The notes beneath the pieces are model-generated. The model was not told where the DNA came from and did no database searches. It was given only the letters and a program-made list of their open reading frames with translations. A DNA stretch of 64,000 nucleotides, taken from Thermoplasmata archaeon. GTDB taxonomy: Archaea > Thermoplasmatota > Thermoplasmata > Lutacidiplasmatales > UBA184. The stretch is from positions 75,375 through 139,374 of the forward strand of contig JAKASE010000001.1 of NCBI GenBank assembly GCA_021819135.1, written 5' to 3'. Shown here in pieces: positions 35,383-64,000 of this stretch. The translations under genes and the position numbers were made by a program. Each line of letters opens with the position of its first letter. Within the stretch, counting starts at the first letter, position 1.

Positions 35383-35455
35383 GCCACTGTAGCTCAGTCG
35401 GCAGAGCGGCTGATTCGTAATCAGCAGGTCGGGGGTTCAAGTCCCTCCAGTGGCT
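35383..35455 (+). tRNA. tRNA-Thr (CGU)
   Basis: 73-nt cloverleaf: acceptor GCCACTG/CAGTGGC, D-arm GCTCAGTCGGCAGAGC, anticodon loop TTCGTAA, T-arm GGGGGTTCAAGTCCCTC; TATA-like CTTATGA ~30 nt upstream. Confidence 0.85.
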
Positions 35456-35499: not shown

Positions 35500-36742
35500 A
35501 TGGGTCAATCCCCGGTCGAACCGGCCGCCGACAATCGCCGGTTCGACATCCACGACACGCACGCCCAGATCGCCCACGCGGAGGCCCGACTGCGCTCAGG
35601 GGACTCGGGGGTCCCACCCGAGACCGCTCAGGCGATCCTCGAGTTCGTTGAGGCTCGTAGAGAAGCCGTCTCCGCGCAGAGGACGGTGACCTACCTTCGC
35701 GAATCTCCAGGCGGCCTCGAAGAGACTCGGCCGGGACCTTCTGGAACCGAACCGGGAGACGCCCGCGAAGTTCCTGCGGGCCTACCGCGAGAAGGAGGTC
35801 TGGACCAAGCTCACTGTGCGCTCCGTCCTCTACTCATTCTGGAAGTGGCGGTTCAATCGTGATGGGAAGGACTTCCCCCGCTGGCTCAAGATACCGCTCT
35901 CTGCGCGAGGGGCGAGCCGGAAAGACCACAACGATGTGTTGACCCCGGAGGAGGTCGCACGCATCGCCGATCACACAGTCAACCTCCGCGACAAGGCTCT
36001 GATCTGGGTCCTCTACGAGAGCGGAGGACGGATCGGCGAGGTGCTGACCCTGCGAATCGGCGACGTGGAGAGAACCGAATACGGGGCGGTCCGCCTCTAC
36101 TTTCCGACGGGAAAGACCGGTCGACGAACTGTCCCCCTCTTTGAAGCCGCGGTGCCGAACCTTCTCCTCTGGCTCAAGAACCATCCCCGAGCCAGCGACA
36201 GGGACGCTCCCCTCTGGGTCCAGATCGAGCAGGCGAACCCGAGCGGAAGTGGAATCGGCTACCGCTACGTCGTCAAGTTGCTCGAGCGAGCGGCGGCCCG
36301 CGCCGGCGTGGCGAAGCCGGTGAATCCGCACAGCTTCCGGCATTCCCGAGCCACGGCTGTGGCACAGAATCCCCAAGTCTCGACCTCGGTGCTCGAGAAG
36401 TTCTTCGGTTGGCAGCCGGGTTCGTCGATGGCGAAGACGTACGTTCACCTGTCGGGCAAGGAAGTCGAGGACGCCCTTGCCCGAGCCCACGGGATCGACC
36501 TCGGCAGATCGGAAACTCCGATGTCGAAGCTCCCGCGTGTGTGCGCCCGCTGCTCTACCTCAAACGACCCTGACGGGAAGTTCTGCGTCCAGTGCGGTGG
36601 TCCGCTCAGTCTTGAAGGCGTGGAGGAGCGGGCGAAGTGGAAGGCCGAGGAAGATGCGCTTGCCAACCTTCTTGACGACCCGAAGGTCCGCTCATTCATC
36701 GCGCGCCGGCTGAGGGTACATCTCGGCCGTGCAGAGGCGTAA
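35500..36742 (+). CDS. tyrosine recombinase/integrase, apparent +1 frameshift near 35690-35700 (N-terminal domain in frame of 35500, catalytic domain in frame of 35816)
   Basis: Catalytic boxes GGRIGEV (Arg), HSFRHSRAT (His-x-x-Arg), KTYVHL (Tyr); C-terminal zinc ribbon CARC...CVQCG; frame-2 reading open from 35690 encodes genuine-looking FLRAYREKEVWTKL segment lacking any start codon. Confidence 0.75.
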
Positions 36743-45174: not shown

Positions 45175-46997
45175 CTACATCTGGCTGACCGCCGCCTTGC
45201 TCGCGCTCTCCAACCGGCTTACCGGCGAGGGAAACCTCGCCGGTAGCCTCCCCTGGACCGATCCGGCTAAATAGGTGTGGGTCTTACGTATGACCCACAT
45301 GGCGGTCAAGCACAACCGCGGCTCGGGCCGCTGTTACCTCTCCCAGTGGCGCACCTACCGCCGAGACGGCAAAGTCGTCAGCGAGTACGTCCGCTACCTC
45401 GGCCTCTGCCCCGAGCACAATGCCGGTCCCTCCACCTCCGTCCTCGACCGCACGGTCCACGGCTCTTCCTATCGGGCGGGAGCGGTCCGACTGCTCTGGA
45501 GCCTCGCCGACGATTTGCAGTTCCGGGCCTCCATCGACCGGATCTGCGGCCGAGATTCCGACCCTTCCGAGCCCTCTCCGGGCCAAACCCTGACGGCCTG
45601 GGCCATCAACCGGGTCCTCGATCCCGCCAGCGCCACCCGCCTCGAACTGTGGACGCCCACCACCGACCTACCTCTCCTCGCTGGGGTCTCGGCGGACGCC
45701 TGGGCGAAGGACACCTTCTTGCGCGCCCTCGACCGGATCTGCTACGACGACCCGGCGCTCGCCCAGGTGGTCGACCACACCGCCGAACTCGAGGAGACGC
45801 TGAGCGCCGGGTGGCGGGAGCGCCACCCGCTCCTGAAGGGGACGAAGGAGGTGATGGCCTACGACCTGACGAACGTGCTGTTCTTCGGCGTCACCTGCCC
45901 GATCGCCACTCCGGGTAGGAACCCCGATCACCAGAATCGGCTCCAAGTGAACGTCGGCGCCGTGGTGAGCCGTCACGACCGGATGCTCTGGCGGCACTTC
46001 GTCTACCGGGGGAACCGGCACGGCGTGGGAACGATGCGGAACCTCTTGGTGGAGCTCCAGCGGGCCCAAGTGGCCCCCGGATTGCTCATCGTGGACCGAG
46101 GCCTCGTGGGCCGGGAGATCGTCGAGGAGGTTCGGGCGGTCGGCTGGCAGCTGCTTGGGGGGCTCTCGCGGAGTTCGAAGGAGGTTCGGGAGATCCTCGA
46201 CACGGCGAAGCTGCGAGAGAACCCCTCGACGTTCGTTCAGAAGACCCGAACGGGGGCGATCTACGCCGCGAAGGTCCGGGCGAGGCTCTGGAAGTCGGAG
46301 CAGGAGGTGGTGCTCTACACGAACGCGGAGCACGCGATGGACGATCGGGTGGAACGGGACCGTGCGCTCTCGATGATCGGGAAGGTGCTCGACACGCTCT
46401 CGGAGAAGGGGAAGGACTGGTCGGAAGGGAAGCTCCACGAGGCGATCGAGGGCGTGCTCGGGGAATCGGCGGAGTTCGTGAACGTCCGGGTGCGTCGGGG
46501 CGGGGCCACGCCGAGAGTGGCGTGGTCCTTTCGGGATCGGGCGGTGAAGGCGGCGGCCCGGCGGGACGGGAAGTACGTGCTGCTCTGCACGGACCCGGGG
46601 CTGTCGGCGGCGGAGGTGGTGGAGCAGTATCTGGGGAAGGACTTCGTGGAGAAGGCGTTCCGGACGTTCAAGTCGGGGATCGAGGTGGAGCCGGTGCGGC
46701 ACCGTCGGGAGCGGCGGGTACGGGCCTACCTGTTCGTGTGTGGGCTCGCGTATCGACTGGAGATGGCGCTTCGGTGGAAGCTCCTGGAGGGCGGTGTGAA
46801 GCCGGAGGACGTAGCGGAGTACCAGGAGCGGCTGCTGGAGGAGCTCGGACGCGTGGAACGAACCGAGGTCCGGCTGGGAGCTCAGGCCCGAACGTGGTAT
46901 CTGAATGTCACGGACCGCGTCCGGGAGGGGTTGAGGCGCCTCAAGCAGACCGGGTTGCTCCAAGAAGGGCCCGTCGCGACCGCGGTACCGGCGTAGG
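45175..46997 (+). mobile_element. IS1634-family insertion sequence with 9-bp target-site duplication TCATAGTAC
   Basis: Direct repeats at 45166-45174 and 46998-47006 flank a 1.8-kb segment carrying a single transposase gene. Confidence 0.65.
45290..46996 (+). CDS. IS1634 family (IS4 superfamily) DDE transposase
   Basis: MAVKHNRGSGRCYLSQWRTYRRDGKVVSEYVRYLG N-terminus and C-terminal YLGKDFVEKAFRTFKSGIEV (Y-x2-R-x3-E-x6-K) signature. Confidence 0.85.
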   Translation: MTHMAVKHNRGSGRCYLSQWRTYRRDGKVVSEYVRYLGLCPEHNAGPSTSVLDRTVHGSSYRAGAVRLLWSLADDLQFRASIDRICGRDSDPSEPSPGQTLTAWAINRVLDPASATRLELWTPTTDLPLLAGVSADAWAKDTFLRALDRICYDDPALAQVVDHTAELEETLSAGWRERHPLLKGTKEVMAYDLTNVLFFGVTCPIATPGRNPDHQNRLQVNVGAVVSRHDRMLWRHFVYRGNRHGVGTMRNLLVELQRAQVAPGLLIVDRGLVGREIVEEVRAVGWQLLGGLSRSSKEVREILDTAKLRENPSTFVQKTRTGAIYAAKVRARLWKSEQEVVLYTNAEHAMDDRVERDRALSMIGKVLDTLSEKGKDWSEGKLHEAIEGVLGESAEFVNVRVRRGGATPRVAWSFRDRAVKAAARRDGKYVLLCTDPGLSAAEVVEQYLGKDFVEKAFRTFKSGIEVEPVRHRRERRVRAYLFVCGLAYRLEMALRWKLLEGGVKPEDVAEYQERLLEELGRVERTEVRLGAQARTWYLNVTDRVREGLRRLKQTGLLQEGPVATAVPA

Positions 46998-47008
46998 TCA
47001 TAGTACGA

Positions 47009-50000
47009 GTGCGCTGTTCAGGTAGCAAGTCGTCTTTCATTCCCAACCTCTATCTCCAGAACCTCTCCGCCGACCGGCTGTTCACCTGGTACGTTACCCT
47101 GAAGGCGACCTACGACGAGACCGATTACTGGATCATCCACAACGCGTGCACGACCCGGGAGGGTGTGACAAACCTGGGGAACAACGTCGTCCAGGGTCCC
47201 GCGTCGGTCTCGATGAGCGGGGGATCCGAGGACTCGACGACCTTGACCACTTCGGCCCAGGTGATCGAGAAGGGTACCAGCGATGTCGAGCTTCAGTGGA
47301 ATAACTCCATGATGGCGGATGGCCAAGGGGTCATCAGCCCGTCCATGGGCGGTAGTGGCCTCTCCGGGTTCGTCTACCAGGCGTCCTGGAACGACACTCA
47401 CACGTTCAGCAGTGGTGTGGCCTACGAAGCCGCCGTGAACACTTCGAGCTATCCGGGAGGTTGGAACAGCTCCTGGAAGCCGTCGATGTCCGCCGCCGAG
47501 CAGACCTCGTCACCGGTGCAGGCCACGAACTCCGTGTGTCAGTTCGTGTATCAGACCAACACGCTCAGCCTCCATGGACTCGTGGGGGTCGGAGGACCGA
47601 ACGACACCGCGACGGTGACTTGGTGGGCGAACGGCTTCGGGGTGGGCGTGCTCGAATACTCGGAGGTCGGCACGTCGTGGAGCCAGACCGTGACGTCGGT
47701 CGTAACGACCGATTCCAATGGGACTGACAAGTACACGGCGACCGTCCACGGCCTGCCCGGTACCGCGTTCTACTCCCTAACGGCCACGACGACGGTGGCC
47801 GCCGGGGGATGCCTCAGTCTCTCGAACGCGATCTCGTCCACGGCGTTCTTCGGACAAGGGTTCACGCTGACGCCGTTCGCGTACGCCTACGATTCGATCA
47901 CGCAGCAAGGTGGCGGTGAGGGGATCTACGCATACCTGTCGCCCCAGTTGTATACCCTCTACACGCAAAGCACGGTAAGTTCGACCGGAGGCTACCTGGA
48001 CTACGGACCGGCCAACGACGCGGGGCCGAACATCACCATCCCCATCTCGTCGCTATCTTCCATCACCTGTGGAGGGAACTGCTTCCTGGTGAACATCACG
48101 CCTACGAGTCCGAACCTGAACTATGTGGTCCAGGAGACGCTCAACTTCTCATGGGACGGCGGATCGTACTCCATGCACAGTGCTCCGACGACCTTCAACT
48201 ACCTCTGGGACACATCGGGGGATGGCCTGACGGATGCGGAGAAGGTCCGCGGCTGGAACGTGACCTACCAGGACCTTGCGGGCACCTACCACACCCGCCA
48301 CGTCACGGCCGAACCCAGCGCCTTTGCGACCAATGGACTCGTGGGAGACTACGTGGAGAAGGAGTTCGGGCTCGACCCGGGCACGGTCGACACGGCAGGC
48401 AGCCACATGCTCGATACATGGAACCTAACGTTCAATCTCCAGCCGGCAGGCGGGAGTCTACCTACCGGCTCGGACCTCCGAGTCTGGTACGAGAACTCGA
48501 CCTACGAGCCGTTCGCGGCAGGTCTTCAGTATTCCCACGGGCTCTATGAGACGGGCAATCCACCGGCCAGCGAGCGGAACGCGACCAACATCTCCGCCAC
48601 GGGAGGCGTCAACATCGGGGACGGGAGCCCATGGGCATCGACTGCGCTCTTCAGCTACCCCGCGCTCGAGACATTCGTCGGTCTGTCCGGTGTCCAGAAC
48701 GCGGGCTGGCTGCGGGCCGTCGAGGGGAGCTGGCAGGGGATCCCGACCCTCACGGTCGAAGGGAAGCTCTCTTGGGGGGCGGATCCCCTGGCCGCATCCA
48801 CCCCGAACGACGGGGTTTCGGACGGGGCGCGGGTCAACCCGCTCTACGATGTCGGTCTCGAGTTCCATTCCGTCTATGCGAACCTGACCGGGCTCGGGTC
48901 GGGCAACGATGGCAATGGCTACGCGGTCGAGATGGTCGAGGGCTACACCGATGATGGCGGGAACTGGCGATACATCAACAACTACTCCACGCCAGCGGTA
49001 TACGGCAACAGCAGCTCCCACCATGGAGACGTCACCGACTACACCACCACGTTGCCGGTGGGTCAAACCCAGCCGACCCAGACGATCTCGCTCGAGGTGG
49101 CGGAGAACATCACTCCGGGCCAGGGGCCCCAGCCGGCCTATATCAACGGGAGCGGTACCGGAATCTCCGAAACGTACGACCTCGTCCGAGGAGGCAATTT
49201 AGTCGTGAATGTCGTCGGCTGGTCCGGGCACGGCGGCTACTCCACGCTCTACGGGGTGTTCACGGAGGTGCCGATGGGAACCAAGGCGCCGACGTGGCTC
49301 TGGGTCCCCACGGACAACTCGACCGTCAACGGTCTCCCGATCGGCCTCCAGCGATACACCGGCGAGCAGTCGTTCGACCTCGTGGTCGTGAACGTCTCCT
49401 CCTCGGCCCTCTCCTCCGACCCGATCCCGCTCCCGTGGGGCGGGACGACACCGACCGGGATCCCGCTCTCGGCCGGCCTGAACGACTTCCTGGTCCCGCG
49501 GGAGCAGTTCCTCTACTCTCCCTTCGGCCAGGCGATCTTCCTCGGGAAGAGCACGAGCTTCAATGCCTCCCAAGCCCTGCCGTTCAACGGCTCGATCGAG
49601 TGGGGCGACATATCGGGGTTCGGCAGTCCGAACCCGATGGTCGACCTCGGCGCCTACTGGCAGAACCGGGCCATCGCCTCCGGACCGGGGAACATCACCG
49701 GGTATAACGAGACCGGTACCGCCGCGGGCACCACGGATGCCATCTCGGTGATGGTCGGTCCGTCCGCCACCACTGCCAACACCGGCGGCCTCCCCTCGAA
49801 CCCGAGCCTCTACTCGACCGTCGGCGATCCCTCGGCCCTGCAGTCCATCGTCACCCTCAACATCACCAGCCCGGACACGCTGGACCTCCTCCTCGCCGCC
49901 CTGCTCGATAACACCACGGGCGGATCCAACGCGGTGAACGGTACCCTCGAGTCCGTCACCTACCAGATCGGGTTCCTCGGACTGAACCCGACCGTACTCA

Positions 50001-51064
50001 ACGCGATCCCGAACGGGACAGAGCCGAACGACGGGCTCTACGGACAACCGAGCAGCACCTGGCCGCCGAACCCGCCGAGCAGCCTCTGGGGCTCCTTCTG
50101 GAACGCGGTCACGAGCTTTGTGGTCAACCCGCTCGGCACGGTCCTGTCGCTCGTCAACACCGTGTGGGACGCCGCTACGGCCGCGTTCACGTACCTGAAC
50201 CACCTCGCGCACGAAGCGGTCGCGATCGGGGCGGAGGTCGTGGCGCGGACCGCAGCCGCGATCGTGCAGGCGGGGAGGGAGATCGCGAACGCGTTCGAGG
50301 TGTTCTTGAACTGGCTCTACACGCTCGTCAAGGACGCACTTGCGGTGGTTATCGACCCGATACTTAACGCGGCCCAGAGTTTCGACAGCACTCTAGCGAC
50401 TCGGGCCAACGTGACTGTGAGCGACCAAGGCTCACTCGGTTACGTGACCCCCGCTGATGGGCTAACTTGGGCACGGGCATTCGACCCAGTAGCCTACCTT
50501 GGGTTTGCATTCGCAGTCGGTATCACCATCGTAATCGGGATTGTTACAGCCGTCACTCTAGGAGCAGGGTTCGTTGTCGGGGTGATCTTGTCCCTCATTC
50601 CCACGCTCGCGCAAGAGCTAATCCATGGACTGGCGACAGTGACGTCACTCACTTCGAGCGCGGTGACAACTCTCGAAGATAGCTTCTCCAACTCGGTCTC
50701 GCAGACTGACTGGGAAGCTTTGGCAGGTGCCGTATCGATCGGGGCGTCGAGCTTCGACTTCTTCTTTGCGTTGGCGACAGCGGCGATGAAGGGACTCACC
50801 AACACCATCGCAGGTACCCTCGCCCTCTCCATCATCGTTGACCTCGTCGTCTTTGTGGTGAGCATCGTGAACTGGGCGAGTCATCTCGCAGACATCGCCA
50901 TCGCCGCCCTCTTGCTGGCGGGCGCCGGAACGTATGTCGCGTTCAGAGCACTGGGTGCGAGCGCGAGCATTCCGGAATTGAAGACTTACGCCACCGTCTC
51001 CGTCATCTTGGCTGGAGTGGGACTTGCTGCTGCCGGGGCCGATGTCCATCTGGCGGAGTCGTGA
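47009..51064 (+). CDS. giant (1351 aa) N-glycosylation-sequon-rich surface protein with C-terminal multi-TM domain; no recognisable signal peptide
   Basis: >70 N-x-S/T sequons, S/T/G-rich beta-like sequence, 6-8 hydrophobic helices in last 300 aa; GTG start 12 nt after IS1634 end. Confidence 0.6.
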   Translation: MRCSGSKSSFIPNLYLQNLSADRLFTWYVTLKATYDETDYWIIHNACTTREGVTNLGNNVVQGPASVSMSGGSEDSTTLTTSAQVIEKGTSDVELQWNNSMMADGQGVISPSMGGSGLSGFVYQASWNDTHTFSSGVAYEAAVNTSSYPGGWNSSWKPSMSAAEQTSSPVQATNSVCQFVYQTNTLSLHGLVGVGGPNDTATVTWWANGFGVGVLEYSEVGTSWSQTVTSVVTTDSNGTDKYTATVHGLPGTAFYSLTATTTVAAGGCLSLSNAISSTAFFGQGFTLTPFAYAYDSITQQGGGEGIYAYLSPQLYTLYTQSTVSSTGGYLDYGPANDAGPNITIPISSLSSITCGGNCFLVNITPTSPNLNYVVQETLNFSWDGGSYSMHSAPTTFNYLWDTSGDGLTDAEKVRGWNVTYQDLAGTYHTRHVTAEPSAFATNGLVGDYVEKEFGLDPGTVDTAGSHMLDTWNLTFNLQPAGGSLPTGSDLRVWYENSTYEPFAAGLQYSHGLYETGNPPASERNATNISATGGVNIGDGSPWASTALFSYPALETFVGLSGVQNAGWLRAVEGSWQGIPTLTVEGKLSWGADPLAASTPNDGVSDGARVNPLYDVGLEFHSVYANLTGLGSGNDGNGYAVEMVEGYTDDGGNWRYINNYSTPAVYGNSSSHHGDVTDYTTTLPVGQTQPTQTISLEVAENITPGQGPQPAYINGSGTGISETYDLVRGGNLVVNVVGWSGHGGYSTLYGVFTEVPMGTKAPTWLWVPTDNSTVNGLPIGLQRYTGEQSFDLVVVNVSSSALSSDPIPLPWGGTTPTGIPLSAGLNDFLVPREQFLYSPFGQAIFLGKSTSFNASQALPFNGSIEWGDISGFGSPNPMVDLGAYWQNRAIASGPGNITGYNETGTAAGTTDAISVMVGPSATTANTGGLPSNPSLYSTVGDPSALQSIVTLNITSPDTLDLLLAALLDNTTGGSNAVNGTLESVTYQIGFLGLNPTVLNAIPNGTEPNDGLYGQPSSTWPPNPPSSLWGSFWNAVTSFVVNPLGTVLSLVNTVWDAATAAFTYLNHLAHEAVAIGAEVVARTAAAIVQAGREIANAFEVFLNWLYTLVKDALAVVIDPILNAAQSFDSTLATRANVTVSDQGSLGYVTPADGLTWARAFDPVAYLGFAFAVGITIVIGIVTAVTLGAGFVVGVILSLIPTLAQELIHGLATVTSLTSSAVTTLEDSFSNSVSQTDWEALAGAVSIGASSFDFFFALATAAMKGLTNTIAGTLALSIIVDLVVFVVSIVNWASHLADIAIAALLLAGAGTYVAFRALGASASIPELKTYATVSVILAGVGLAAAGADVHLAES

Positions 51065-52920: not shown

Positions 52921-54654
52921 CTCCGTCAGTCCAGCCCTCGAGGACCCGCGTCGAACAGTAACCCCGCCACGCCGATGGCTCCGAGGAGGGACCGCTGTTC
53001 CTTCGTCATCTCCGTCACGAGCCGGCGACGCCAGCCCGTCTTGGCGAGCTCGACCTCGTTCAGCATGATGGTGCGGAACTGGTCCAGGGCCTTCGCTCCC
53101 GTGAGCTCGTAATCGCGCATTCGGACGTGCAGTTCGACCACCCGCTCGAGGAGATAGGCGAGCACGCAGAGGAAGAGGTGGGCTTCGATCCGTCGCTCGA
53201 GGCGGTGGCGGATTGGGCGGACCTCCAGTCCGCTCTTCAGCTCCCGCCATCCCTGTTCGATGATCGAGAGCCCCATGTAGAGACGGGCGACCTCCTCGGG
53301 GGGAAGATCGGTGTCGGTGGTCAGTACCCACCAACCGGCCAGCCTCCGATCGCGTCGACGGCCTTCCTTGAGCTTCGCCGTCAATCCACGGACCGTCGCC
53401 TCGTCCCACTCGATCTCGAACAGGTCGGAGAGACCCTTTGCCGCCAGAGCGGCGTGGGCCTGTCGAAGGATCGTGTGATGGTGCCGAGGCCGCTTCGCCC
53501 AGGCACGGCGAAGCTGGTAGAGGATCGCCTCGCCCTGGGCGATCCTACGCCCGAGGTTCTCGAGCTCGGTCTTCCGTCGCTCCTCGTTCAAGAGGACGAT
53601 GAACCGTCGTCCCTCTCGGTCGATGACCTCACGGACCTGGTTCTGCTCGCTGACGGCCACTGGCGGGAGTTTCTGGGCCTGGAGGATGATCTCCTCCACG
53701 TTCCGATTGACCTCGGCGAGCACGTAGTGGAATCCGTGGGCGTGGAGGTCCGCGAGGACCTCCTCGCTCTTCATTCCCCGGTCGCCGACATAGGTCCCTT
53801 CCTTCAGTCCGAAGAGCCGGGTCAACCGGTCGACCATCCCGATGACCGTCGTGTTGTCGGTGGTGTTACCCGGATAGACCTGGAGGGTGATGGGGAGGCC
53901 CTCGGGCGTGACGACCATGCCCCAGCTGACCTGAGGCCGATCCGCTCGACGGTCTCTCGAGTAGCCGAACTGGGCGAGGGGACCTCCCTCGCCCTCGAAG
54001 TAGCTGGACGTGAGGTCGTGATAGAGCACTCCCGAGGATTGGCTCATTGGGCGCACGACCCGTTCGAACAGCTTCGGTTCGAACCGGTCCTTCGCTCGCC
54101 AGAAGGCATCCATCGCTCGGTAGAACAGGTTGTCGTGCAACCGCTCGGGGTCGAGGTGGAGGAAGAATGGAACGGCGGTGGTGGGCAACCACTCGAGGAG
54201 ACCATACTTCGAGGTCGGATCGTCGAGGCGGTTCAGCACGATCGCCTCGAGGAGCGCCGCGACCCGTCCCTTGTGCGGCACTCCATTAAGCGTTTCGAGG
54301 GCGAGTTGGTGGAGTCCAAGCTTCCGCCAGAGGAAGTGACCGATGGCCACTTTGCCGTAGCTCCACGACTGACGGACACTGAGCTCCGAGAGATCGGCGA
54401 TGTCCCGCGGTCGAGGAGCCAGGGGGAACCGCGGGTCGGTGGCCAGCCATCGACGGAGGTTCTCGATCTGCTCTGGAGTAACCCGACCGAAGTTGACCAG
54501 GACCTCGGTCCGGACCTTGGTTCCTTCCCGGATCCCTCGGGCCAACTGAGCGTAGGTCTGCCCCCGAGGACGAACGACCTTGATGTAGAGGCCTCGGGGC
54601 ACGCAGGGTAGAGAACTGACGAATAGATAGAAGTATCCAACGTATTCGATATGC
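52921..54654 (-). mobile_element. second IS1634-family element (different from the first); possible 11-bp imperfect direct repeat GTTATCCTA(T/C)A
   Basis: Repeat copies at 52910-52920 and 54655-54665; AT-rich 54620-54680 terminus; no clear terminal IRs found. Confidence 0.4.
52926..54602 (-). CDS. IS1634 family DDE transposase (558 aa)
   Basis: C-terminal LYMGLSIIEQGWRELKSGLEVRPIRH signature; family-typical length; GTG start. Confidence 0.85.
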   Translation of the reverse strand: MPRGLYIKVVRPRGQTYAQLARGIREGTKVRTEVLVNFGRVTPEQIENLRRWLATDPRFPLAPRPRDIADLSELSVRQSWSYGKVAIGHFLWRKLGLHQLALETLNGVPHKGRVAALLEAIVLNRLDDPTSKYGLLEWLPTTAVPFFLHLDPERLHDNLFYRAMDAFWRAKDRFEPKLFERVVRPMSQSSGVLYHDLTSSYFEGEGGPLAQFGYSRDRRADRPQVSWGMVVTPEGLPITLQVYPGNTTDNTTVIGMVDRLTRLFGLKEGTYVGDRGMKSEEVLADLHAHGFHYVLAEVNRNVEEIILQAQKLPPVAVSEQNQVREVIDREGRRFIVLLNEERRKTELENLGRRIAQGEAILYQLRRAWAKRPRHHHTILRQAHAALAAKGLSDLFEIEWDEATVRGLTAKLKEGRRRDRRLAGWWVLTTDTDLPPEEVARLYMGLSIIEQGWRELKSGLEVRPIRHRLERRIEAHLFLCVLAYLLERVVELHVRMRDYELTGAKALDQFRTIMLNEVELAKTGWRRRLVTEMTKEQRSLLGAIGVAGLLFDAGPRGLD

Positions 54655-54768
54655 GTTATCCTACAAAATCCAAGTCCTCAGTCGAGAACCCGATCAGTTT
54701 GTCGAAGGTGGGCTCGGAGCGATCGCCCTCGACTTGACCCTGCCTTTCGCGGATACTGTGGGTTGCTC

Positions 54769-56632: not shown

Positions 56633-57295
56633 CTATCCCAGGCTTACTCTCCCCGTCCAGGCGTGCAGCCAGGTCGCGTTGTCCAGATCGTCTCGCACGA
56701 CCGGACTGCGCCGGAGCAGGAGCATGATCCCGAGGACAGCCAGGCCCGCGGCGGCCAGCAACAGCAGCCCGGCCAGCGGGTCCACGAGGACATAAACCAG
56801 GGTCGCGAAGTTCCACGACATGTGGAGGGCCAGCCCGGCCGGGAAGCCCCACGGCCTGCCCCGCCAGGTCAGCGTGGTCAGGGTCGTGGCCGTCGAGTGC
56901 AGCAGGGGGTCGGTGGCCGCCCGGATCGCGATGAGCAACGCCAGCTCCCCAAGTGGGCCGCCCCAGGCCGACCAGAAGTAGAGGGCATTCTCGGTCGCAG
57001 CGAAGCCGATCCCGACGCCGGCGGCGGACGCGAAGTTCGCCCCCAGGGAGCCGCTGGCGAGGAACTTCAGGACCTCCTCGGTCAGTGGCCCGATGAGCAC
57101 CAGGGTCACGGTGGCCGCGATCAACGGGGAGACCGCGTCCTCGGCCAGCAGTTCGATGAAGAGGGCGGCGATCGCGACGGCCGTCGCCCCGAGAGCGATC
57201 CCCCAGTAGTTCGGCCGCAGCCACGCGACGAACGGCGCGACCAGGACGTACGCCGTCAAGAAGGCGTAAACCCAAGGCGTCAACTCCGAGAGCAT
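56633..57295 (-). CDS. PrsW-family intramembrane metalloprotease
   Basis: EExxK (LTEEVLKF), FxxxEN (FAATENALY), HxxxN (LHMSWN) motifs in polytopic membrane protein; ATG 57295. Confidence 0.7.
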   Translation of the reverse strand: MLSELTPWVYAFLTAYVLVAPFVAWLRPNYWGIALGATAVAIAALFIELLAEDAVSPLIAATVTLVLIGPLTEEVLKFLASGSLGANFASAAGVGIGFAATENALYFWSAWGGPLGELALLIAIRAATDPLLHSTATTLTTLTWRGRPWGFPAGLALHMSWNFATLVYVLVDPLAGLLLLAAAGLAVLGIMLLLRRSPVVRDDLDNATWLHAWTGRVSLG

Positions 57296-57449: not shown

Positions 57450-57809
57450 TCATGCCGTCGACCCGGGGTCGACCCCGGCCCCTTCCCCCTCGCGCGCATG
57501 TAGTGCTCGCGCGCCGGAAGCGTCAAGCGTCAAGCGCTCGGCGGTTTGGAGCCTCTTTCGGATGGATGCGATCAGGTTGGTCGTCACCCCGCGCTTGGCC
57601 TGGATCTGCCTGTAGGTCAGGCCTGCGAGCACGTCGGATTCGACCGCCTCTTGAACGGCGAGCTCCGCGGCGTCCGTCTCGGTCCGAAGCTCTCGAAGCC
57701 GCTCCCGGGCCGGTTTCCCGCGGGCCAAATACGCGAGCGTAGCCTTTGCCACGGCCTCGACGTCCCCCGCAAACTCCGGTCCCGTGAATTGCGCTTCCAT
57801 GTCCTGCAC
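57450..57809 (-). CDS. small HTH protein (sigma-70 region-4-like / LuxR-type helix-turn-helix)
   Basis: LAGLTYRQIQAKRGVTTNLIASIRKRLQ resembles LT.REIA..LG.S..TV; GTG start 57809 or ATG 57800. Confidence 0.5.
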   Translation of the reverse strand: MQDMEAQFTGPEFAGDVEAVAKATLAYLARGKPARERLRELRTETDAAELAVQEAVESDVLAGLTYRQIQAKRGVTTNLIASIRKRLQTAERLTLDASGARALHAREGEGAGVDPGSTA

Positions 57810-57917
57810 GTCGACCTCGATCTTGGACCCCGAAGTCCGAGCGTGAGGTACGGTAGGTCGGTCTCGGGAAGGGGGCCCAGGGCCCCGCGGCGATTGCCTT
57901 TTGGAGCCATCAGGTCT

Positions 57918-59600
57918 GAGTCTCCGACGGGGGAGTGATCCGCGTCTCCTCAGGCGCGCGGGAGGGTACCGCCCGGAGTTGCTCGTTGCTGGTAGCGACG
58001 AGCGAGGAGCCTCCCCTCGGATCGCAATCTGCTTCTTCTCCGACGGGGGAGGTACCGCCCTGAGGAACGAACAGCCGGCAGCGCCGGTTCACGCGACTCT
58101 GGACGTAAGATGATGTGCCGTTACGAAGCCAGACACGTTCCCGTGCGCGCGGAGCTCGCGTCCCAATGGCGGTGGCGTGAGCGTGTACGCCGATTCCTTC
58201 GCGCTCATGCTCGCGCCGTTCACGGACCCCGAACCCTAGCTGTGTCGCGCACGTGACGACTGGGGGAACCACGGTTACCGGACACCCGGACACTGGGTCT
58301 CTTCCGGTCGAGCGACCTCTCCTTGGGTGCGCCTTCGGGGCCGGGATCTCACCCTGCACCATGCACCCTTACACCGGGTCCCTTTCCCCCGAGCGAGCTC
58401 TCCGCGCTTGCGCGTTCGAGCCGGCACATCTTTCGGGATGCTGTCGGATCGATAGACGCTACCCGTTACTTGCTGCTGGCGCGCGCGTACCACACACACG
58501 CGAGGGAGGAACGGGTAGCTCGTCCGGACGAGCGGGACGAGAAGGGCGAGACGAGTCATTCCCTCGCGAGCACTTGCTCACACCGAGCACCGCTTGAGGT
58601 GTCGGCTCAGGTGGTCGAGGGGGAGAACGCTCCCTCGACCGTGGGGCACGGACACGGTCTGAACCCGACGGGGACCCTTGTCAGTTGACGGTTGAGGGTT
58701 CCGGCGCGCACGAACCACGCGCGGGTGAGGGGTACACGGTGGGCACTCGTCCGGGCGAGCCGGTGGGGACGCATGAGCGTCCCTTTGGAGGGGAGCGGGC
58801 CGATCGCGAATCTTGCCCCTTGCCCTGGGTCGGCTTCCTCCGAGCGAGCTCTCCACGCGACGCGCGTTCCGAGTTGACGTCCGCCGGACGCCAGGAGGAG
58901 GCGCGACGTTCGCAGTCACCGCAAGCGCGGGGAGGAGGGAGCGAACCATGCCCCCGCAAGCCCCTCGGAGCCCATGGATCGATGGTCAAAGTTCAACGTC
59001 GAGCGCGCGAGCACTACGCGCACGGGAGAAGAAGACCCGGGCGAGCCGGACGAGGACGAGTCACTCGGCCGGACGGGCAGCGAGTCTGATGCTGGCGTCC
59101 ACAAGGTCACAAGGGGGTCTCCATCCCCCGAGCGAGCTCTCCGCGCGACGCGAGTCCGGAGCGCCCTCGTCGGCCTCTTGGTTCGATGGGTGCCGCACGT
59201 CGGGAGGCGGCCCAATACGAGCGAGTACCCCGACTACGCGAGGAAGGCTCCTCCGAAAGACGTGAGAACATCCCTTGAGGACGAGTGGTTCCCAATTCCC
59301 ACATCCCGAGCCCCGGCGCGCGAGCACCACGCGCGGGGAAGGAGAAGGCGGATGGCACCGGGTCGGACGGGTTACTCGTCCGGACGAGTCGGCCGCTCGG
59401 ACGGGCTCACCGATCCCGCGCATCGTTTGACGTGGCGGGAGAGGTTGTCCCGGCGGACCAGGGTCCTGCATCCCCGGGGGCAGAGGATGCGATCCGAGCC
59501 GGACCAGTTCCCCAAGTGCTTGACGTTTGACGCTTCCGGAGCGTGCGAACTACGCGCGGGTGAGGGAGTAGGGGGGTTGACCGTTGACGGTTCCGGTATT
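57918..59600. repeat. GC-rich non-coding repeat cluster: 3 copies of CCGAGCGAGCTCTCC(G/A)CGCG..CGCG.GTTCGAG, 2 copies of ~50-nt TTGACG(G/T)TTGA(G/C)G(G/C)TTCCGG..GCG(C/T)GCGAAC(C/T)ACGCGCGGGTGAGG, several ACGCGCGGG/ACGCGCACGGG variants, and perfect 14-16-nt palindromes CTCGTCCGGACGAG
   Basis: Motif A at 58386-58420, 58837-58873, 59125-59160 (+ inverted partial 58143-58160); motif B at 58685-58733 and 59520-59570; palindromes 58518-58533 and 59384-59399; direct repeats TCTCCGACGGGGGAG at 57921-57935 and 58037-58051. Confidence 0.6.
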
Positions 59601-60091
59601 CGTTGCGACTTAGAGACCGACGTGCCGGAACCATCCTCGAAGTGGTGGCCGGTTCCCGGTTCCCCGGGCGGTACCTCCCCGCGCGCGGGGGACGAGACCG
59701 GGGTGGTATCGCTCCCGGACGAGCCGGACGAGTGGGACGAGCGGGACGAGCGCGGTTCGACGGGTGGCACGTTCGGCTCCTCGTGCGGATAGAGTTCGAG
59801 TGGGCCGGACCTTGGACTTGGACCCTCCGGCTCCGTGAACGCCTCCCCGCCCGGGACTTCGAGATAGACCGGACCGACGGACGACACGTGCCCCGGACTC
59901 TCTCGGTGGGTCAGGATGACCTCGGACCACAGAGGACCCCCGGTTTCCCAACCGGGATCGCGACGATGATCCTGGCCACAAAGGGCACATCGGGAGGCGG
60001 GAGCTCGGCCGATCACCTGGTCTCGGCAGTTGGAACAGACGAGTGGATCGCTGCCGCGGACACGCGGTCCGTCGTGGGTACAGGCCGTCAC
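59372..60091 (-). CDS. possible zinc-finger protein: N-terminal zinc ribbon (CSNC...CALCG), S/P-rich low-complexity middle, C-terminal C2HC finger (CPRGC...H...C)
   Basis: 239-aa ORF with ATG; mixed codon usage; 3' half overlaps repeat region so may be partly spurious. Confidence 0.3.
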   Translation of the reverse strand: MTACTHDGPRVRGSDPLVCSNCRDQVIGRAPASRCALCGQDHRRDPGWETGGPLWSEVILTHRESPGHVSSVGPVYLEVPGGEAFTEPEGPSPRSGPLELYPHEEPNVPPVEPRSSRSSHSSGSSGSDTTPVSSPARGEVPPGEPGTGHHFEDGSGTSVSKSQRIPEPSTVNPPTPSPARSSHAPEASNVKHLGNWSGSDRILCPRGCRTLVRRDNLSRHVKRCAGSVSPSERPTRPDE

Positions 60092-61075: not shown

Positions 61076-61171
61076 CGCGCGTACACCCGCCTGCGCGGAC
61101 GCGGTAGGCGGTACACCGTTCGTGGGAGGTTGTGAGAGCGACGTGTCCACGTCCCCCTTTTTCCCGTCAGA

Positions 61172-63036
61172 GTGCGCCGAGCAACCATGGAGACCAGCAA
61201 CGACCCAAGCTACACGGTAAGTCGTAGCGGAAGGCAGGGTGTCGGGGGAAACCCCGAATCTGAAGGGCCTGACCCGCAAGCTCGTGGGCCGAAGGAAGAC
61301 GAACCGACAACCAGCCTCCTCGCGGAAGGACGACCCTGTTCTGACGGGGGGAAGTCGTGTGTGGCGTACGGCGAGGAGGTGTGTGAGGTCGGCACGCGGG
61401 TATCGGGCCTCCATGGTGACCTCGGGATGCCCTCGGTCCTCCCGGCCGTGGCAAGGAAGGAAGCCTCGGGGTTGGGACCCCGATGGCGAATGGCCCGAGC
61501 TACGGGAAGGGTAGACCTCGTGGCAACACGAGGACGAAGGGACCAGGGTGGCAGAGGGAGCCGTAGTAGTCGTGACGGCCGGGGAAACCCGGAACGAGCG
61601 AAGGGCTCCCGGTCGGCCAAGGGTGGCGCGGAAAAGACCGGCGGAGTGACTTCCCGAGGGCGGGCACGGAATGGTGGGACGACCCATCCCATCCTCTACG
61701 GAGAGCCGCCAAGGGAGGGGAAGGGCGCGGAGCGCCCTCCGAGTCGGTCGAGTGCCATCGGGGAGAACCACCCATGAAGCCGCTTCCGAAGTGGACGGGG
61801 CAGAAGCATTCCTCGCTGATGCCCCTGCTGTTTCGGAAGAAGACCCTCCAGGCGGCATGGGAGCAGGTGAGGAGGAATGGAGGAGCCCCGGGGATAGACG
61901 GCGAGACGGTGGAGGAGTTCGGAGAACATGCGAAGGAACGGCTGTGGGAACTGTCGGAGGAACTCCGACTGCACACGTGGCAGCCGAAGCCGTTGCGTCG
62001 AGTCTGGATACCGAAGCCGGACGGCCGGAAGCGAGGACTGGCCATCCCGAGCGTGGAGGACCGGGTGGTGCACGCCGCCATCGCCATCGTGCTCTATCCG
62101 ATGTTCGAGGACGTGTTCGGGGAGGCGTGCTTCGCGTATGTCCCGGGGAAGAACGCCCAGCAAGCAGTAGCGCGAGTAGCGGAGAAGGGACGAGCGGGGA
62201 AGGAATGGGTCGTGGAGACCGATGTGGCCTCGTTCTTCGACACGGTGGATCGGCGGCGACTGGTGGGGAAGCTCGCGGCGAGGATCGCGGACGGGAGCTT
62301 CCTTCGACTGGTGGGCCAAGTCGTTCGGTCCGGCGTGCTGGGAGAGCGGACCACAGAGGAGAGTGCCGAGGGAATCCCGCAAGGGAGTCCCCTGTCGCCC
62401 CTCCTGGCGAACATCTATCTCGCGGAGTTTGACCGAGAGGTAGGGAAGCGCTGGGAGTTGACGCGGTATGCCGACGACCTCGTGGTGCAGTGCGCCACGA
62501 GGGAGGAAGCGGAAGCGGCCCAGGAGGAGGTGGAGTCCGCCCTCGGGAACGAAGGGCTGACCATGAAGCCGGAAAAGACGCGTGTGGTGTCGTTGCGAGA
62601 GGGGGTGGACTTTCTGGGGTATCGCATCACCCTCGGGGGCGTCTGGCCCTCGGAGAAGTCGGTGAAGCGGCTTCAGGAGAAGGTACGCTCCCTGACGCTG
62701 CGGCACGAGACGCGTCCGCTGAAGGAAGTGGTGCAACGGGTGATGCCCGTGATTCGCGGGTGGACGAACTACTTCTCGATGACCGAGCCATCTCGGCTCT
62801 GGAACCTGGGGATGTGGATTCTGGACCGAATTCGCCTGTGCGCCGTGAAGCACTGGTGGCGAGTGAAGTGGCAGAAAGAAGCGTCCTCCGCACGGCTGTA
62901 CGGGCTGGGATTGAGGCTACCGTATGTCCTCCTCAAGTGGGGCGCCCGATGAGGCCGAGAAAGCCGTGTGCGCTAAACGCGCCCGCACGGTTTGGGGTGG
63001 CGGACGGCGGGGAGTAACCTCCGCCTCCGACCCTAT
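61172..63036 (+). mobile_element. group II intron (~1.86 kb): 5' GUGCG, domain I-IV with IEP ORF, domain V (62961-62993), domain VI with bulged A, 3' end ~63036
   Basis: GTGCG at 61172-61176; RT/maturase ORF in domain IV; DV AAGCCGUGUGCGC-UAAA-CGCGCCCGCACGGUUU with AGC triad and 2-nt bulge; DVI GGCGGGGAG-UA-A-CCUCCGCC. Confidence 0.75.
61774..62952 (+). CDS. group II intron-encoded reverse transcriptase/maturase (RT + X domains, no endonuclease domain)
   Basis: RT blocks: RVWIPKPDGRKRGLAIP (RT1-2), FAYVPGKNAQQAV, SFFDTVDRRRL, IPQGSPLSPLLANIYL (RT5), YADDLVVQC (RT5 YADD); maturase X tail. Confidence 0.9.
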   Translation: MKPLPKWTGQKHSSLMPLLFRKKTLQAAWEQVRRNGGAPGIDGETVEEFGEHAKERLWELSEELRLHTWQPKPLRRVWIPKPDGRKRGLAIPSVEDRVVHAAIAIVLYPMFEDVFGEACFAYVPGKNAQQAVARVAEKGRAGKEWVVETDVASFFDTVDRRRLVGKLAARIADGSFLRLVGQVVRSGVLGERTTEESAEGIPQGSPLSPLLANIYLAEFDREVGKRWELTRYADDLVVQCATREEAEAAQEEVESALGNEGLTMKPEKTRVVSLREGVDFLGYRITLGGVWPSEKSVKRLQEKVRSLTLRHETRPLKEVVQRVMPVIRGWTNYFSMTEPSRLWNLGMWILDRIRLCAVKHWWRVKWQKEASSARLYGLGLRLPYVLLKWGAR

Positions 63037-64000
63037 AGAAGGGGGTGGCGGCACATCTCCGGGAGGTTTCGGCGGATCCCCCTTCCTTCCCGCGCCTTCG
63101 TGGGTCGGCTCGGGCGGTGGGGTGACCCGAGCCTTGACCCCTCGAAGGAACGTTCTCTTCTCCTTCCCGCGGCGCTCGGAGCTGACGCGGGGGTGAGCCC
63201 GGCGGATCGCGGCCGCGACCTCCCGGGGGCTGGGCGGCTCCTCGACGTTTTCCTCCTCCGCCACCTCGTCCACTCGCTTCACCACGTCGTCCAGGGCGAC
63301 TTCCCCCTCGGGATCGTCTACGAGTTCGTGCTCAGCGACCCACAGAGCCGGGTCGGACGACCGCACCCACTTGTCCGCGATGTCGACCGGGAGCGCGGTG
63401 AAGCGCCCCTGTTTCAGCAACCGACGCGAGGCGTCGAAGAACGTGCGGAAGATCCCCGCCCTCTCCTCGAGGAGCTCGGCGGCGAAATCGGGGCGCTCGT
63501 CCTTCGGTTCCACCTTGACTTCCCAGGCGACGAGAAGGATCCGGACCCAGAACGCCGGGGTGGCCCCGGGGACCCTCGGAAGGCGGTTGCAGGAGAAGAC
63601 GAGCTTCGCCGACGGGCGGAACTTGAACGGGTGCTGATACTTCCGCTGAGCCGAGATCTCGTCCCGACCGCCCGTGAGCTCCTGGACCAGACCGACGTTG
63701 CGGATCAACTTCCACGGAATGTCGCTGCGGACGTTCGCGATTTTGTCGGCGATCTCCGCGGCGAGGAACTTGTCGTCCGCGAGACCCGAGAGGTCGATCG
63801 CGGCGATGTTGTCGGTTCCGTAGACCCCGTTGAGGACGGCCGTGAAGGTCGACTTGCCCGTGGTCGATGGCCCCCACAGGACCAGCATCTTCCGCAGCGA
63901 GTTCCAGGGCCAGAGCAGATAGCCGGAGAACTCGAGGATCGCATCTCTCGTCTCGTGGTTCGGGAGGGCCTGCTCGAGGAACTTCTCGAATCGGGGGCAC
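62917..64000 (-). CDS. phage/plasmid P4-family primase C-terminal / D5-like SF3 helicase, 5' partial (continues beyond window end); C-terminal tail read through antisense intron
   Basis: Frame open to position 64000: ...FSGYLLWPWNSLRKMLVLWGPSTTGKSTF (Walker A) ...ELTGGRDEISAQRKYQHPFKFRPSAKLVFSCNRLP; residues after ~aa 284 map inside intron DV/DVI and RT ORF. Confidence 0.7.
   Translation of the reverse strand, partial: CPRFEKFLEQALPNHETRDAILEFSGYLLWPWNSLRKMLVLWGPSTTGKSTFTAVLNGVYGTDNIAAIDLSGLADDKFLAAEIADKIANVRSDIPWKLIRNVGLVQELTGGRDEISAQRKYQHPFKFRPSAKLVFSCNRLPRVPGATPAFWVRILLVAWEVKVEPKDERPDFAAELLEERAGIFRTFFDASRRLLKQGRFTALPVDIADKWVRSSDPALWVAEHELVDDPEGEVALDDVVKRVDEVAEEENVEEPPSPREVAAAIRRAHPRVSSERRGKEKRTFLRGVKARVTPPPEPTHEGAGRKGDPPKPPGDVPPPPSIGSEAEVTPRRPPPQTVRARLAHTAFSASSGAPLEEDIR

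Follow-up and report, generated by a model that had tools for sequence, protein, structure and literature searches.

A complete group II intron inserted antisense in a primase-helicase gene of a Thermoplasmata archaeon

A 64,000-nt stretch of DNA from a Thermoplasmata archaeon (GenBank assembly GCA_021819135.1, contig JAKASE010000001.1, positions 75,375 to 139,374; termed here the window) carries a complete group II intron of 1865 nt on its plus strand, at positions 61172–63036. The intron lies antisense within a gene for a primase-polymerase (Prim-Pol)/D5 helicase and divides it into two parts. The interpretation favored here, held at a probability of about 0.9, is that an intact intron lacking an endonuclease (En) was guided by its exon-binding site 1 (EBS1) into the primase-helicase gene of an integrated element and split that gene in antisense orientation. 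It is carried by what is directly observed, namely the anatomy of the intron, its exact boundaries, the division of the gene, and covariation between EBS1 and intron-binding site 1 (IBS1) across nine insertion sites.

The intron and the divided gene

The intron begins with GTGCGCCGAGC and ends with CCGACCCTAT. Its 5′ terminus, GTGCG at 61172–61176 (GUGCG in the RNA), fits GUGYG, and its 3′ terminus, CCCUAU ending at 63036, fits AY. An earlier note on this DNA, made by a reader of the sequence, had proposed such an intron and suggested covariance models as a check. Rfam model RF00029 (domain V/VI) matches 62959–63036 with 41.4 bits, above the gathering score of 40 and with E=1e-4 over the whole window; the 3′ limit of the match coincides with the last base of the intron. 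In a permissive scan of 61100–63100, RF02001 (group-II-D1D4-3) matches 61242–61413 with 33.1 bits (gathering score 32) and RF01998 matches 61512–61606 with a sub-threshold 23.3 bits. The common fold of domains I–IV (DI–DIV) obtained by RNAalifold from six copies of the intron has 182 base pairs, 70 of which show compensatory changes.

The intron-encoded protein (IEP) has 392 amino acids. It matches the Pfam families RVT_1 (reverse transcriptase, RT; E=2e-36) and GIIM (maturase; E=7e-14), and the YADD motif is intact at 62467–62478. Pfam searches with the IEP gave no domain beyond these two, and the protein is without a DNA-binding/endonuclease (D/En) extension. Its open reading frame (ORF) sits in DIV, ends 8 nt 5′ of domain V (DV), and is preceded by a covarying DI–DIII fold. 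DV forms a hairpin of 34 nt that has an AGC triad; in domain VI (DVI), the A that lies 7 nt before the 3′ end is bulged. Such landmarks are far beyond chance, and they confirm a complete group II intron. The 5′ GUGCG, the RT/maturase ORF and the domain V named in the earlier note are all present, and the interval it gave is right to the base.

The long minus-strand ORF that enters the window at 64000 continues through DVI and DV into the terminal part of the RT ORF, where it meets a stop at 62917–62919, just as had been read from the letters. Within the window this ORF matches Pfam DUF5906, a P-loop domain, with E=1.6e-13. The full product can be read from the same locus in a second assembly, GCA_027377435.1 (contig DAIFDS010000079.1, termed L001). 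It has 847 amino acids and matches PF09250 (Prim-Pol), PF08706 (D5_N) and PF19263 (DUF5906). When the intron is removed, the upstream ORF is joined in frame to 61171–60734, which yields a gene of 953 codons that is split after codon 808, or at 85% of its length. The annotated 847-residue product, P0121, consists of 808 native residues followed by 39 residues of intron antisense, so the suggestion of a truncated primase with an intron-derived tail was correct. The neighboring call of 317 amino acids, P0164 (60734–61687, minus strand), is made of 172 intron-antisense residues and the 145 displaced native ones. P0121 and P0164 are annotation artefacts of the insertion, the two halves of one primase-helicase gene, and the insertion thereby accounts for two “hypothetical proteins” of public annotation that are chimeras. 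The principal features are as follows; L004, in the second line, is a locus with an intron-less homologue of the gene, the product of which is termed P0122.

61166–61171, plus strand: IBS1 (GTCAGA), the final six bases of the 5′ exon as read on the intron strand, perfectly complementary to EBS1
61172–63036, plus strand: complete group II intron, from the gap-free alignment with L004 and Rfam matches at both ends
61172–61773, plus strand: ribozyme domains DI–DIII and the 5′ part of DIV, from RNAalifold, RF02001 and RF01998 (sub-threshold)
61340–61345, plus strand: EBS1 (TCTGAC), in a terminal loop of DI that is the most variable loop of the family alignment
61774–62952, plus strand: IEP of 392 amino acids, RT and X/maturase without D/En, from Pfam RVT_1 and GIIM
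62961–62994, plus strand: domain V, 34 nt, from the RF00029 alignment and the fold
62995–63036, plus strand: domain VI with bulged A at 63030, from the RF00029 alignment and the fold
63037–64000, minus strand: upstream part of the primase-helicase, codons up to 808, from Pfam DUF5906; it continues past the window to window-equivalent position 65460
62917–63036, minus strand: intron-antisense read-through, 39 codons and a stop, from translation and in agreement with P0121
60734–61171, minus strand: severed 3′ part of the primase, 145 codons and a stop, in the frame restored by intron removal and colinear with the homologues P0122, P0125 and P0143

The boundaries are exact because the uninterrupted homologue is colinear through the junction. 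P0122 (878 amino acids, listed at 73% identity) follows the reconstructed primase across the junction to the C-terminus, and at the DNA level the joined exons are 75% identical to the L004 gene and align without a gap at the junction, so that both ends of the intron coincide with the junction of the empty site. The reconstructed empty site reads CCCGTCAGA up to the junction and AGAAGGGGG after it. A near-invariant block shared with L004 spans this point, with CCCTTTTTC(C or T)CGTCAGA on one side and AGAAGGGG on the other. The more distant P0125 (35% identity) shares its last ∼65 residues with the reconstructed primase. This colinearity with P0122 and P0125, together with the L004 alignment, means that the joined frame is a real gene rather than a frame left open by chance in GC-rich DNA.

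In a metagenome assembly a repeated intron may be collapsed or mis-joined into a locus where it does not belong, and several related introns do occur as contigs that both start and end exactly at intron termini (L006 and L008), as is the case for repeats that break assemblies. However, the same junctions and neighbors recur on contigs of 101, 190 and 222 kb, from no fewer than three assemblies with NCBI and ENA records; the exon halves join in frame and colinearly with the intron-less homologue; and EBS1 fits this particular 5′ exon. An assembly artefact is thus improbable in the extreme.

The earlier note placed the insertion in the 3′ tail of the gene. It is indeed in the 3′ part, but the description understates the damage, as the 145 severed codons include a predicted winged-helix domain. 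AlphaFold2, run on the last 78 residues of the primase with three homologous tails, gives a helix–helix–helix–β-hairpin arrangement with a pLDDT of 81. In a Foldseek search of the PDB, all of the best matches are winged-helix domains (those of Rpa2, Rpc34 and MCM, and the MarR type), with TM-scores of 0.6–0.75 and E-values that are weak, as expected of a 70-residue domain. The last ∼70 amino acids of the severed part are therefore predicted to form a winged helix. By analogy with the primase-helicases of P4 alpha and pRN1 type, this domain would bind DNA. An exhaustive profile-free search with the C-terminal tail returned only two relatives besides the query, and the tail appears to be lineage-specific, though it recurs in P0122, P0125 and P0143. 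The displaced codons have no stops or frameshifts.

The order of domains in the host gene, i.e. Prim-Pol, D5_N, P-loop (DUF5906) and a C-terminal winged-helix-like region, is that of P4 alpha, poxvirus D5 and pRN1 ORF904-type proteins. The gene differs from these by the intron split and by an N-terminal hydrophobic leader that is found only in a few relatives of Thermoplasmata type. This leader (MKTAIPALVIV...AYNNPTFA..., window-equivalent 65200–65460) is shared with P0143, P0157 and P0161, proteins of ∼1000 amino acids each whose central modules differ from that of the primase and have no Pfam domain. P0143, with 1004 amino acids, has both the leader and the C-terminal tail of the primase around its different central module. 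Leaders and tails that are shared around differing middles point to an exchange of modules among the replication proteins that related elements carry.

Target-site choice and antisense insertion

Relatives of the intron with RTs 73–93% identical were collected from genomes and metagenomes and their termini located, which provided nine independent insertion sites. All nine are different. The loop at 61340–61345 is the most variable stretch of DI in the family, and in every copy it is complementary to the last 5–7 bases of that copy's own 5′ exon. Examples are given below.

Window copy: 5′ exon end GTCAGA, EBS1 loop TCTGAC
L002 copy: 5′ exon end ACTCAGG, EBS1 loop CCTGAGT
L006 copy: 5′ exon end TTTCGCA, EBS1 loop TGCGAAA
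L012 copy: 5′ exon end AGGATTA, EBS1 loop TAATCCT
L014 copy: 5′ exon end CTGTGCG, EBS1 loop CGCACAG

In the window copy all six positions of EBS1 and IBS1 pair. Over the family, cognate pairs match at 5–6 of 6 positions (mean 5.8, perfect at seven of the nine sites), whereas non-cognate combinations average 4.1. The pairing analysis that had been suggested in the earlier note thus gives a clear result for EBS1, and since nine differing sites each match their own EBS1, the family retargets by base pairing. The covariation with the exon appears to be the signature of a family that has been kept splicing-competent and retargets by means of EBS1. The closest other copy, L010 (89% nucleotide identity), is inserted elsewhere, and its EBS1 differs. 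With its nine target sites and matching EBS1 loops, this small family is usable for studies of retargeting.

In the favored interpretation, the EBS1 loop picked the target by pairing to the 5′ exon, and the intron reverse-spliced into the DNA strand that bears the IBS1 match GTCAGA, a strand that happens to be antisense to the Prim-Pol/D5 helicase gene. Because the target is picked by EBS1 pairing, orientation was set by the position of the IBS1 match on the plus strand, and host transcription had no part in it. The strand was probably also determined by which of the two was single-stranded at a replication fork; in En-minus introns the replication fork supplies the primer for cDNA synthesis (PMC4424553).

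Rfam, Pfam and RNAalifold agree on a plus-strand intron antisense to the primase gene, as had been noted before, and because it is antisense, the intron cannot leave the primase mRNA. For the primase the insertion is permanent: the mRNA encodes 808 native and 39 nonsense residues, with a 145-amino acid linker and predicted winged-helix region stranded downstream. This is a clean, base-resolved archaeal case of a group II intron acting as a pure retroelement, in that it breaks a gene that is unable to splice it out. Published archaeal cases are few and come mainly from methanogens.

The starts of the relatives are variable. Most begin with GCGCG (L006:8, L007:3402, L011, L013 and L014) or GUGCC (L002:3309 and L008:1) and not with GUGYG, so that position 2 or 5 varies within the family; L012 begins with GUGUG. 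Genes adjoining family members include IS110 and DDE transposases, a serine recombinase and VapBC. The ORF interrupted by the L002 copy has no match in Pfam. In L014 (2400–4300) and L015 the same intron, with an identical RT (P0014), is present at homologous sites whose upstream exons have diverged (GGATCCGGGTGCACGCGTTCCTGTGCG versus GGCGATCCCGGGCCATGTGTTCCTGTGCG); its neighbors are genes for a serine recombinase and a DDE_5 transposase. The two cases exemplify a single homing site kept in hosts that have diverged.

Relationship to known intron classes

A terminator-like motif is found just 5′ of the insertion site and offers another account of target choice.

61140–61162, plus strand: terminator-like hairpin and CCCCTTTTT, ending 9 nt 5′ of the insertion site, from a consensus scan; of uncertain relevance

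According to this account the element is a canonical class C (group IIC) intron drawn to a terminator-like hairpin in the DNA, as IIC introns of bacteria are, and its position in the primase ORF is incidental to the hairpin and T-run on the plus strand. Group IIC introns are characterized by a shortened DV with a CGC triad and by an IBS1–EBS1 pairing of 3–4 bp without an EBS2 (Toor et al., PMC1702495), and they are inserted 3–11 nt 3′ of a terminator or attC stem-loop, outside of ORFs (PMC1702495). A hairpin with a T5 occurs only this once in 2.7 kb, a count that is within shuffle expectation, and its stem ends 18 nt from the insertion site, beyond the IIC range. No comparable hairpin is present at the other family sites. 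When the last 30–51 nt of the nine 5′ exons were folded as DNA, one gave z < −2 and the others −0.5 to +1.3. Eight of the nine thus fold no better than shuffled sequences, which rules out hairpin-directed targeting of IIC type as a property of the family.

The protein and the ribozyme do show IIC resemblances. Among solved structures the closest to the IEP are the group IIC RTs 7uim and 6ar1 (E∼1e-57, 197 bits), followed by the CL-class RT TeI4h (6e-38, 134 bits) and LtrA of class ML (2.5e-30, 109 bits); this is a ranking that cannot include classes D, E, F and g1–g6, which are without a solved representative. For the ribozyme, two group IIC introns served as references, one from between integron cassettes on a Klebsiella plasmid (L018) and one from Anoxybacillus (L017). 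Both match RF02001 with 135–143 bits and RF01998 with 67–79 bits, and because bona fide IIC introns match them so strongly, these are IIC-type models. They are also the sole D1–D4 models of Rfam that the window intron matches, weakly in its case (33 bits versus 135–143 for RF02001). IIC-like also are an AGGAA motif in DI, the absence of a detectable EBS2, and the overall size of 1865 nt.

In other respects the intron departs from group IIC. The DV of the window family has 34 nt and AGC, whereas those of L017 and L018 are shorter and have CGC; the EBS1–IBS1 pairing is of 6–7 bp and not 3–4 bp; there is no consistent stem-loop in the 5′ exons; and the insertion is inside an ORF. A canonical, hairpin-targeted IIC intron is accordingly quite unlikely, and the intron is not filed as IIC: its DI is IIC-like, and its DV and EBS1 length are IIB-like. 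Assignment to a class by way of plasmid-borne bacterial IEPs was uninformative, as all have less than 40% identity to the window IEP (at most 39%).

Perhaps the Thermoplasmata-associated family is a structural lineage, intermediate between IIC and IIB, that has yet to be described; this is a tentative and rather doubtful proposal at present. Such an intermediate lineage would combine a IIC-like compact DI devoid of EBS2 and a small En-less RT with a IIB-type 34-nt AGC DV, an EBS1 of 6–7 bp that is re-tuned from copy to copy, frequent GCGCG or GUGCC 5′ ends, and no need of a hairpin. Together these traits would permit entry into coding sequence in either orientation.

Comparison with known systems places the intron among ordinary retroelements. 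With the En-minus group II retroelements (IEP classes C, D, E and F/g-groups, e.g. RmInt1 of class D) it shares the DI–DVI architecture, a DIV ORF of RT and X only, targeting by EBS1–IBS1, a home in mobile DNA, away from housekeeping genes, and the behavior of a retroelement that does not depend on splicing from a host mRNA (PMC4424553). It differs from them in that no EBS2–IBS2 pairing was identified and in the low identity of its IEP to plasmid-borne ones (≤39%). With the group IIC introns B.h.I1, GsI-IIC and those associated with integron attC sites it has in common the small En-less RT, a size of ∼1.87 kb and the features of DI listed above, and it is set apart from these by its DV, its longer EBS1–IBS1 pairing, the lack of a consistent stem-loop and its location. 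The Methanosarcina introns (CL1 and D lineages) likewise have archaeal hosts and low copy numbers, and they appear to be retroelements that are associated with mobile DNA and were acquired from bacteria. These have been reported not in host ORFs but nested in the RT genes of other introns (PMC1712230), in contrast to the window intron, which lies antisense in a protein-coding gene that belongs to an integrated element and whose RT falls in a Thermoplasmata-associated clade. The statement in the earlier note that archaeal group II introns often home to sites of this kind finds no support there.

Of the complete Thermoplasmatota genomes, 15% are documented to have group II introns, and the IEPs of archaea belong to clades C, D, CL1A and CL1B (PMC8919778). 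In bacteria, group II introns are typically found in mobile DNA outside of housekeeping genes and are retroelements that need no splicing from a host mRNA, such that disruptive insertions are expected (PMC4424553). As both the presence of these introns in Thermoplasmatota and disruptive insertion into mobile DNA were already known, no concept is changed by the present case. It is ordinary behavior of a selfish element and not a new kind of system; only the mixed IIC/IIB character of the family is mildly unusual.

Age, mobility and the host element

The intron is 100% identical in L001 and in a further assembly, L020. Between two assemblies there are 13 differences in 20 kb, none of them inside the intron, and the truncated primase occurs in three variants that are one to two amino acids apart, all with the intron-derived tail. 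Because the insertion is common to all three variants and the intron is unchanged, it predates this micro-divergence. The term “recent” in the earlier note is plausible in that the ORF, the ribozyme, the EBS1–IBS1 pairing and the displaced codons are all intact; it carries no date, and three assemblies that have diverged slightly have the insertion in common. The two single-nucleotide polymorphisms (SNPs) between the window and L001 are both in the severed primase fragment. They are no evidence of faster decay of the broken primase, as a third assembly has SNPs clustered in other genes too. Six SNPs between L001 and L020 fall within 107 nt (57094–57200) of a PrsW-like gene, with the surrounding kilobases identical; the pattern resembles that of a local tract of recombination, or of strains mixed in the assemblies.

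The intron is apparently still functional, judging from its sequence, and would be competent in splicing and mobility today. It might instead be a dead, immobile relic that decays along with a defunct integrated element. The host element does have two transposase genes and a broken primase, a single copy of the intron is seen in 73 kb, and most bacterial intron copies are truncated or inactivated (review, PMC4424553). However, the ORF is full-length with its YADD and has full-length relatives at 75–93% identity, every ribozyme domain is present with conserved structure, EBS1–IBS1 pairing is perfect, and there are no intron substitutions between assemblies that differ at 13 flanking positions. 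A relic is therefore unlikely.

Several observations weigh against an intact, EBS1-guided intron that remains active. In the family alignment no variable loop is complementary to, or covaries with, exon positions −7 to −14, where an EBS2 would be expected to pair. For EBS3, every alignment column was scanned against the first base of the 3′ exon, and the best column agrees at six of eight sites, which is not convincing. Target recognition is only partly explained because of these two results. A second identical copy is absent from the 73 kb at hand. Comparison with intron-less alleles, as had been suggested, yielded the colinear 73%-identical homologue but no empty allele of the same element, there being no 953-amino acid or 100%-identical uninterrupted protein among the matches; viral contigs also gave no match to the empty-site junction pattern. 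Neither copies nor empty sites thus demonstrate mobility in the host genome. The intron would splice, and hence move again, only from plus-strand transcripts antisense to the primase, the production of which is assumed, and loss of primase function presumes that the truncated protein is inactive.

The left half of the window has genes for archaeal EF-1alpha, LonB, topoisomerase I and UvrA, and the EF-1alpha clusters at 90% identity with proteins that bear the name “Thermoplasmata archaeon”. A tRNA-Thr gene (35383–35455) is followed by a tyrosine integrase (35690–36742) and a fall in GC content from ∼0.71 to ∼0.62. A 14-nt att-like repeat of the 3′ end of this tRNA (CCCTCCAGTGGCTT) is found at L001 14960–14973, equivalent to window positions 66733–66746 and just past the primase. 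The primase and intron are thus probably inside a ∼31-kb element integrated at tRNA-Thr. The GC content does not climb back to 0.71 beyond the 14-nt repeat, and the right-hand end of the element is uncertain.

Two DDE_Tnp_1 transposase genes are inside the island (45275–46996, plus strand; 52926–54677, minus strand), and together with the intron they suggest an element that accumulates insertions. PHROG searches with eight ORFs of the island gave no match, and no relative of the intron RT was found in IMG/VR; from these searches, a viral nature of the host element was rejected.

Two other regions of the island may be mentioned. An ORF of 1355 amino acids (46997–51064, plus strand) has strong third-position GC bias and no match in Pfam or PHROG. 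A region of ∼2.3 kb, 57450–59800, lies ∼1 kb past the 3′ end of the primase gene, with a 153-amino acid ORF in between. It has no ORF that is backed by GC content at the third codon position, and displays dispersed, imperfect direct and inverted repeats with motifs that include GCGCGCGAGCACTACGCGCG and CCGGACGAGCCGGACGAG. It could be the replication origin of the element with its iterons, or a set of decayed small repeats.

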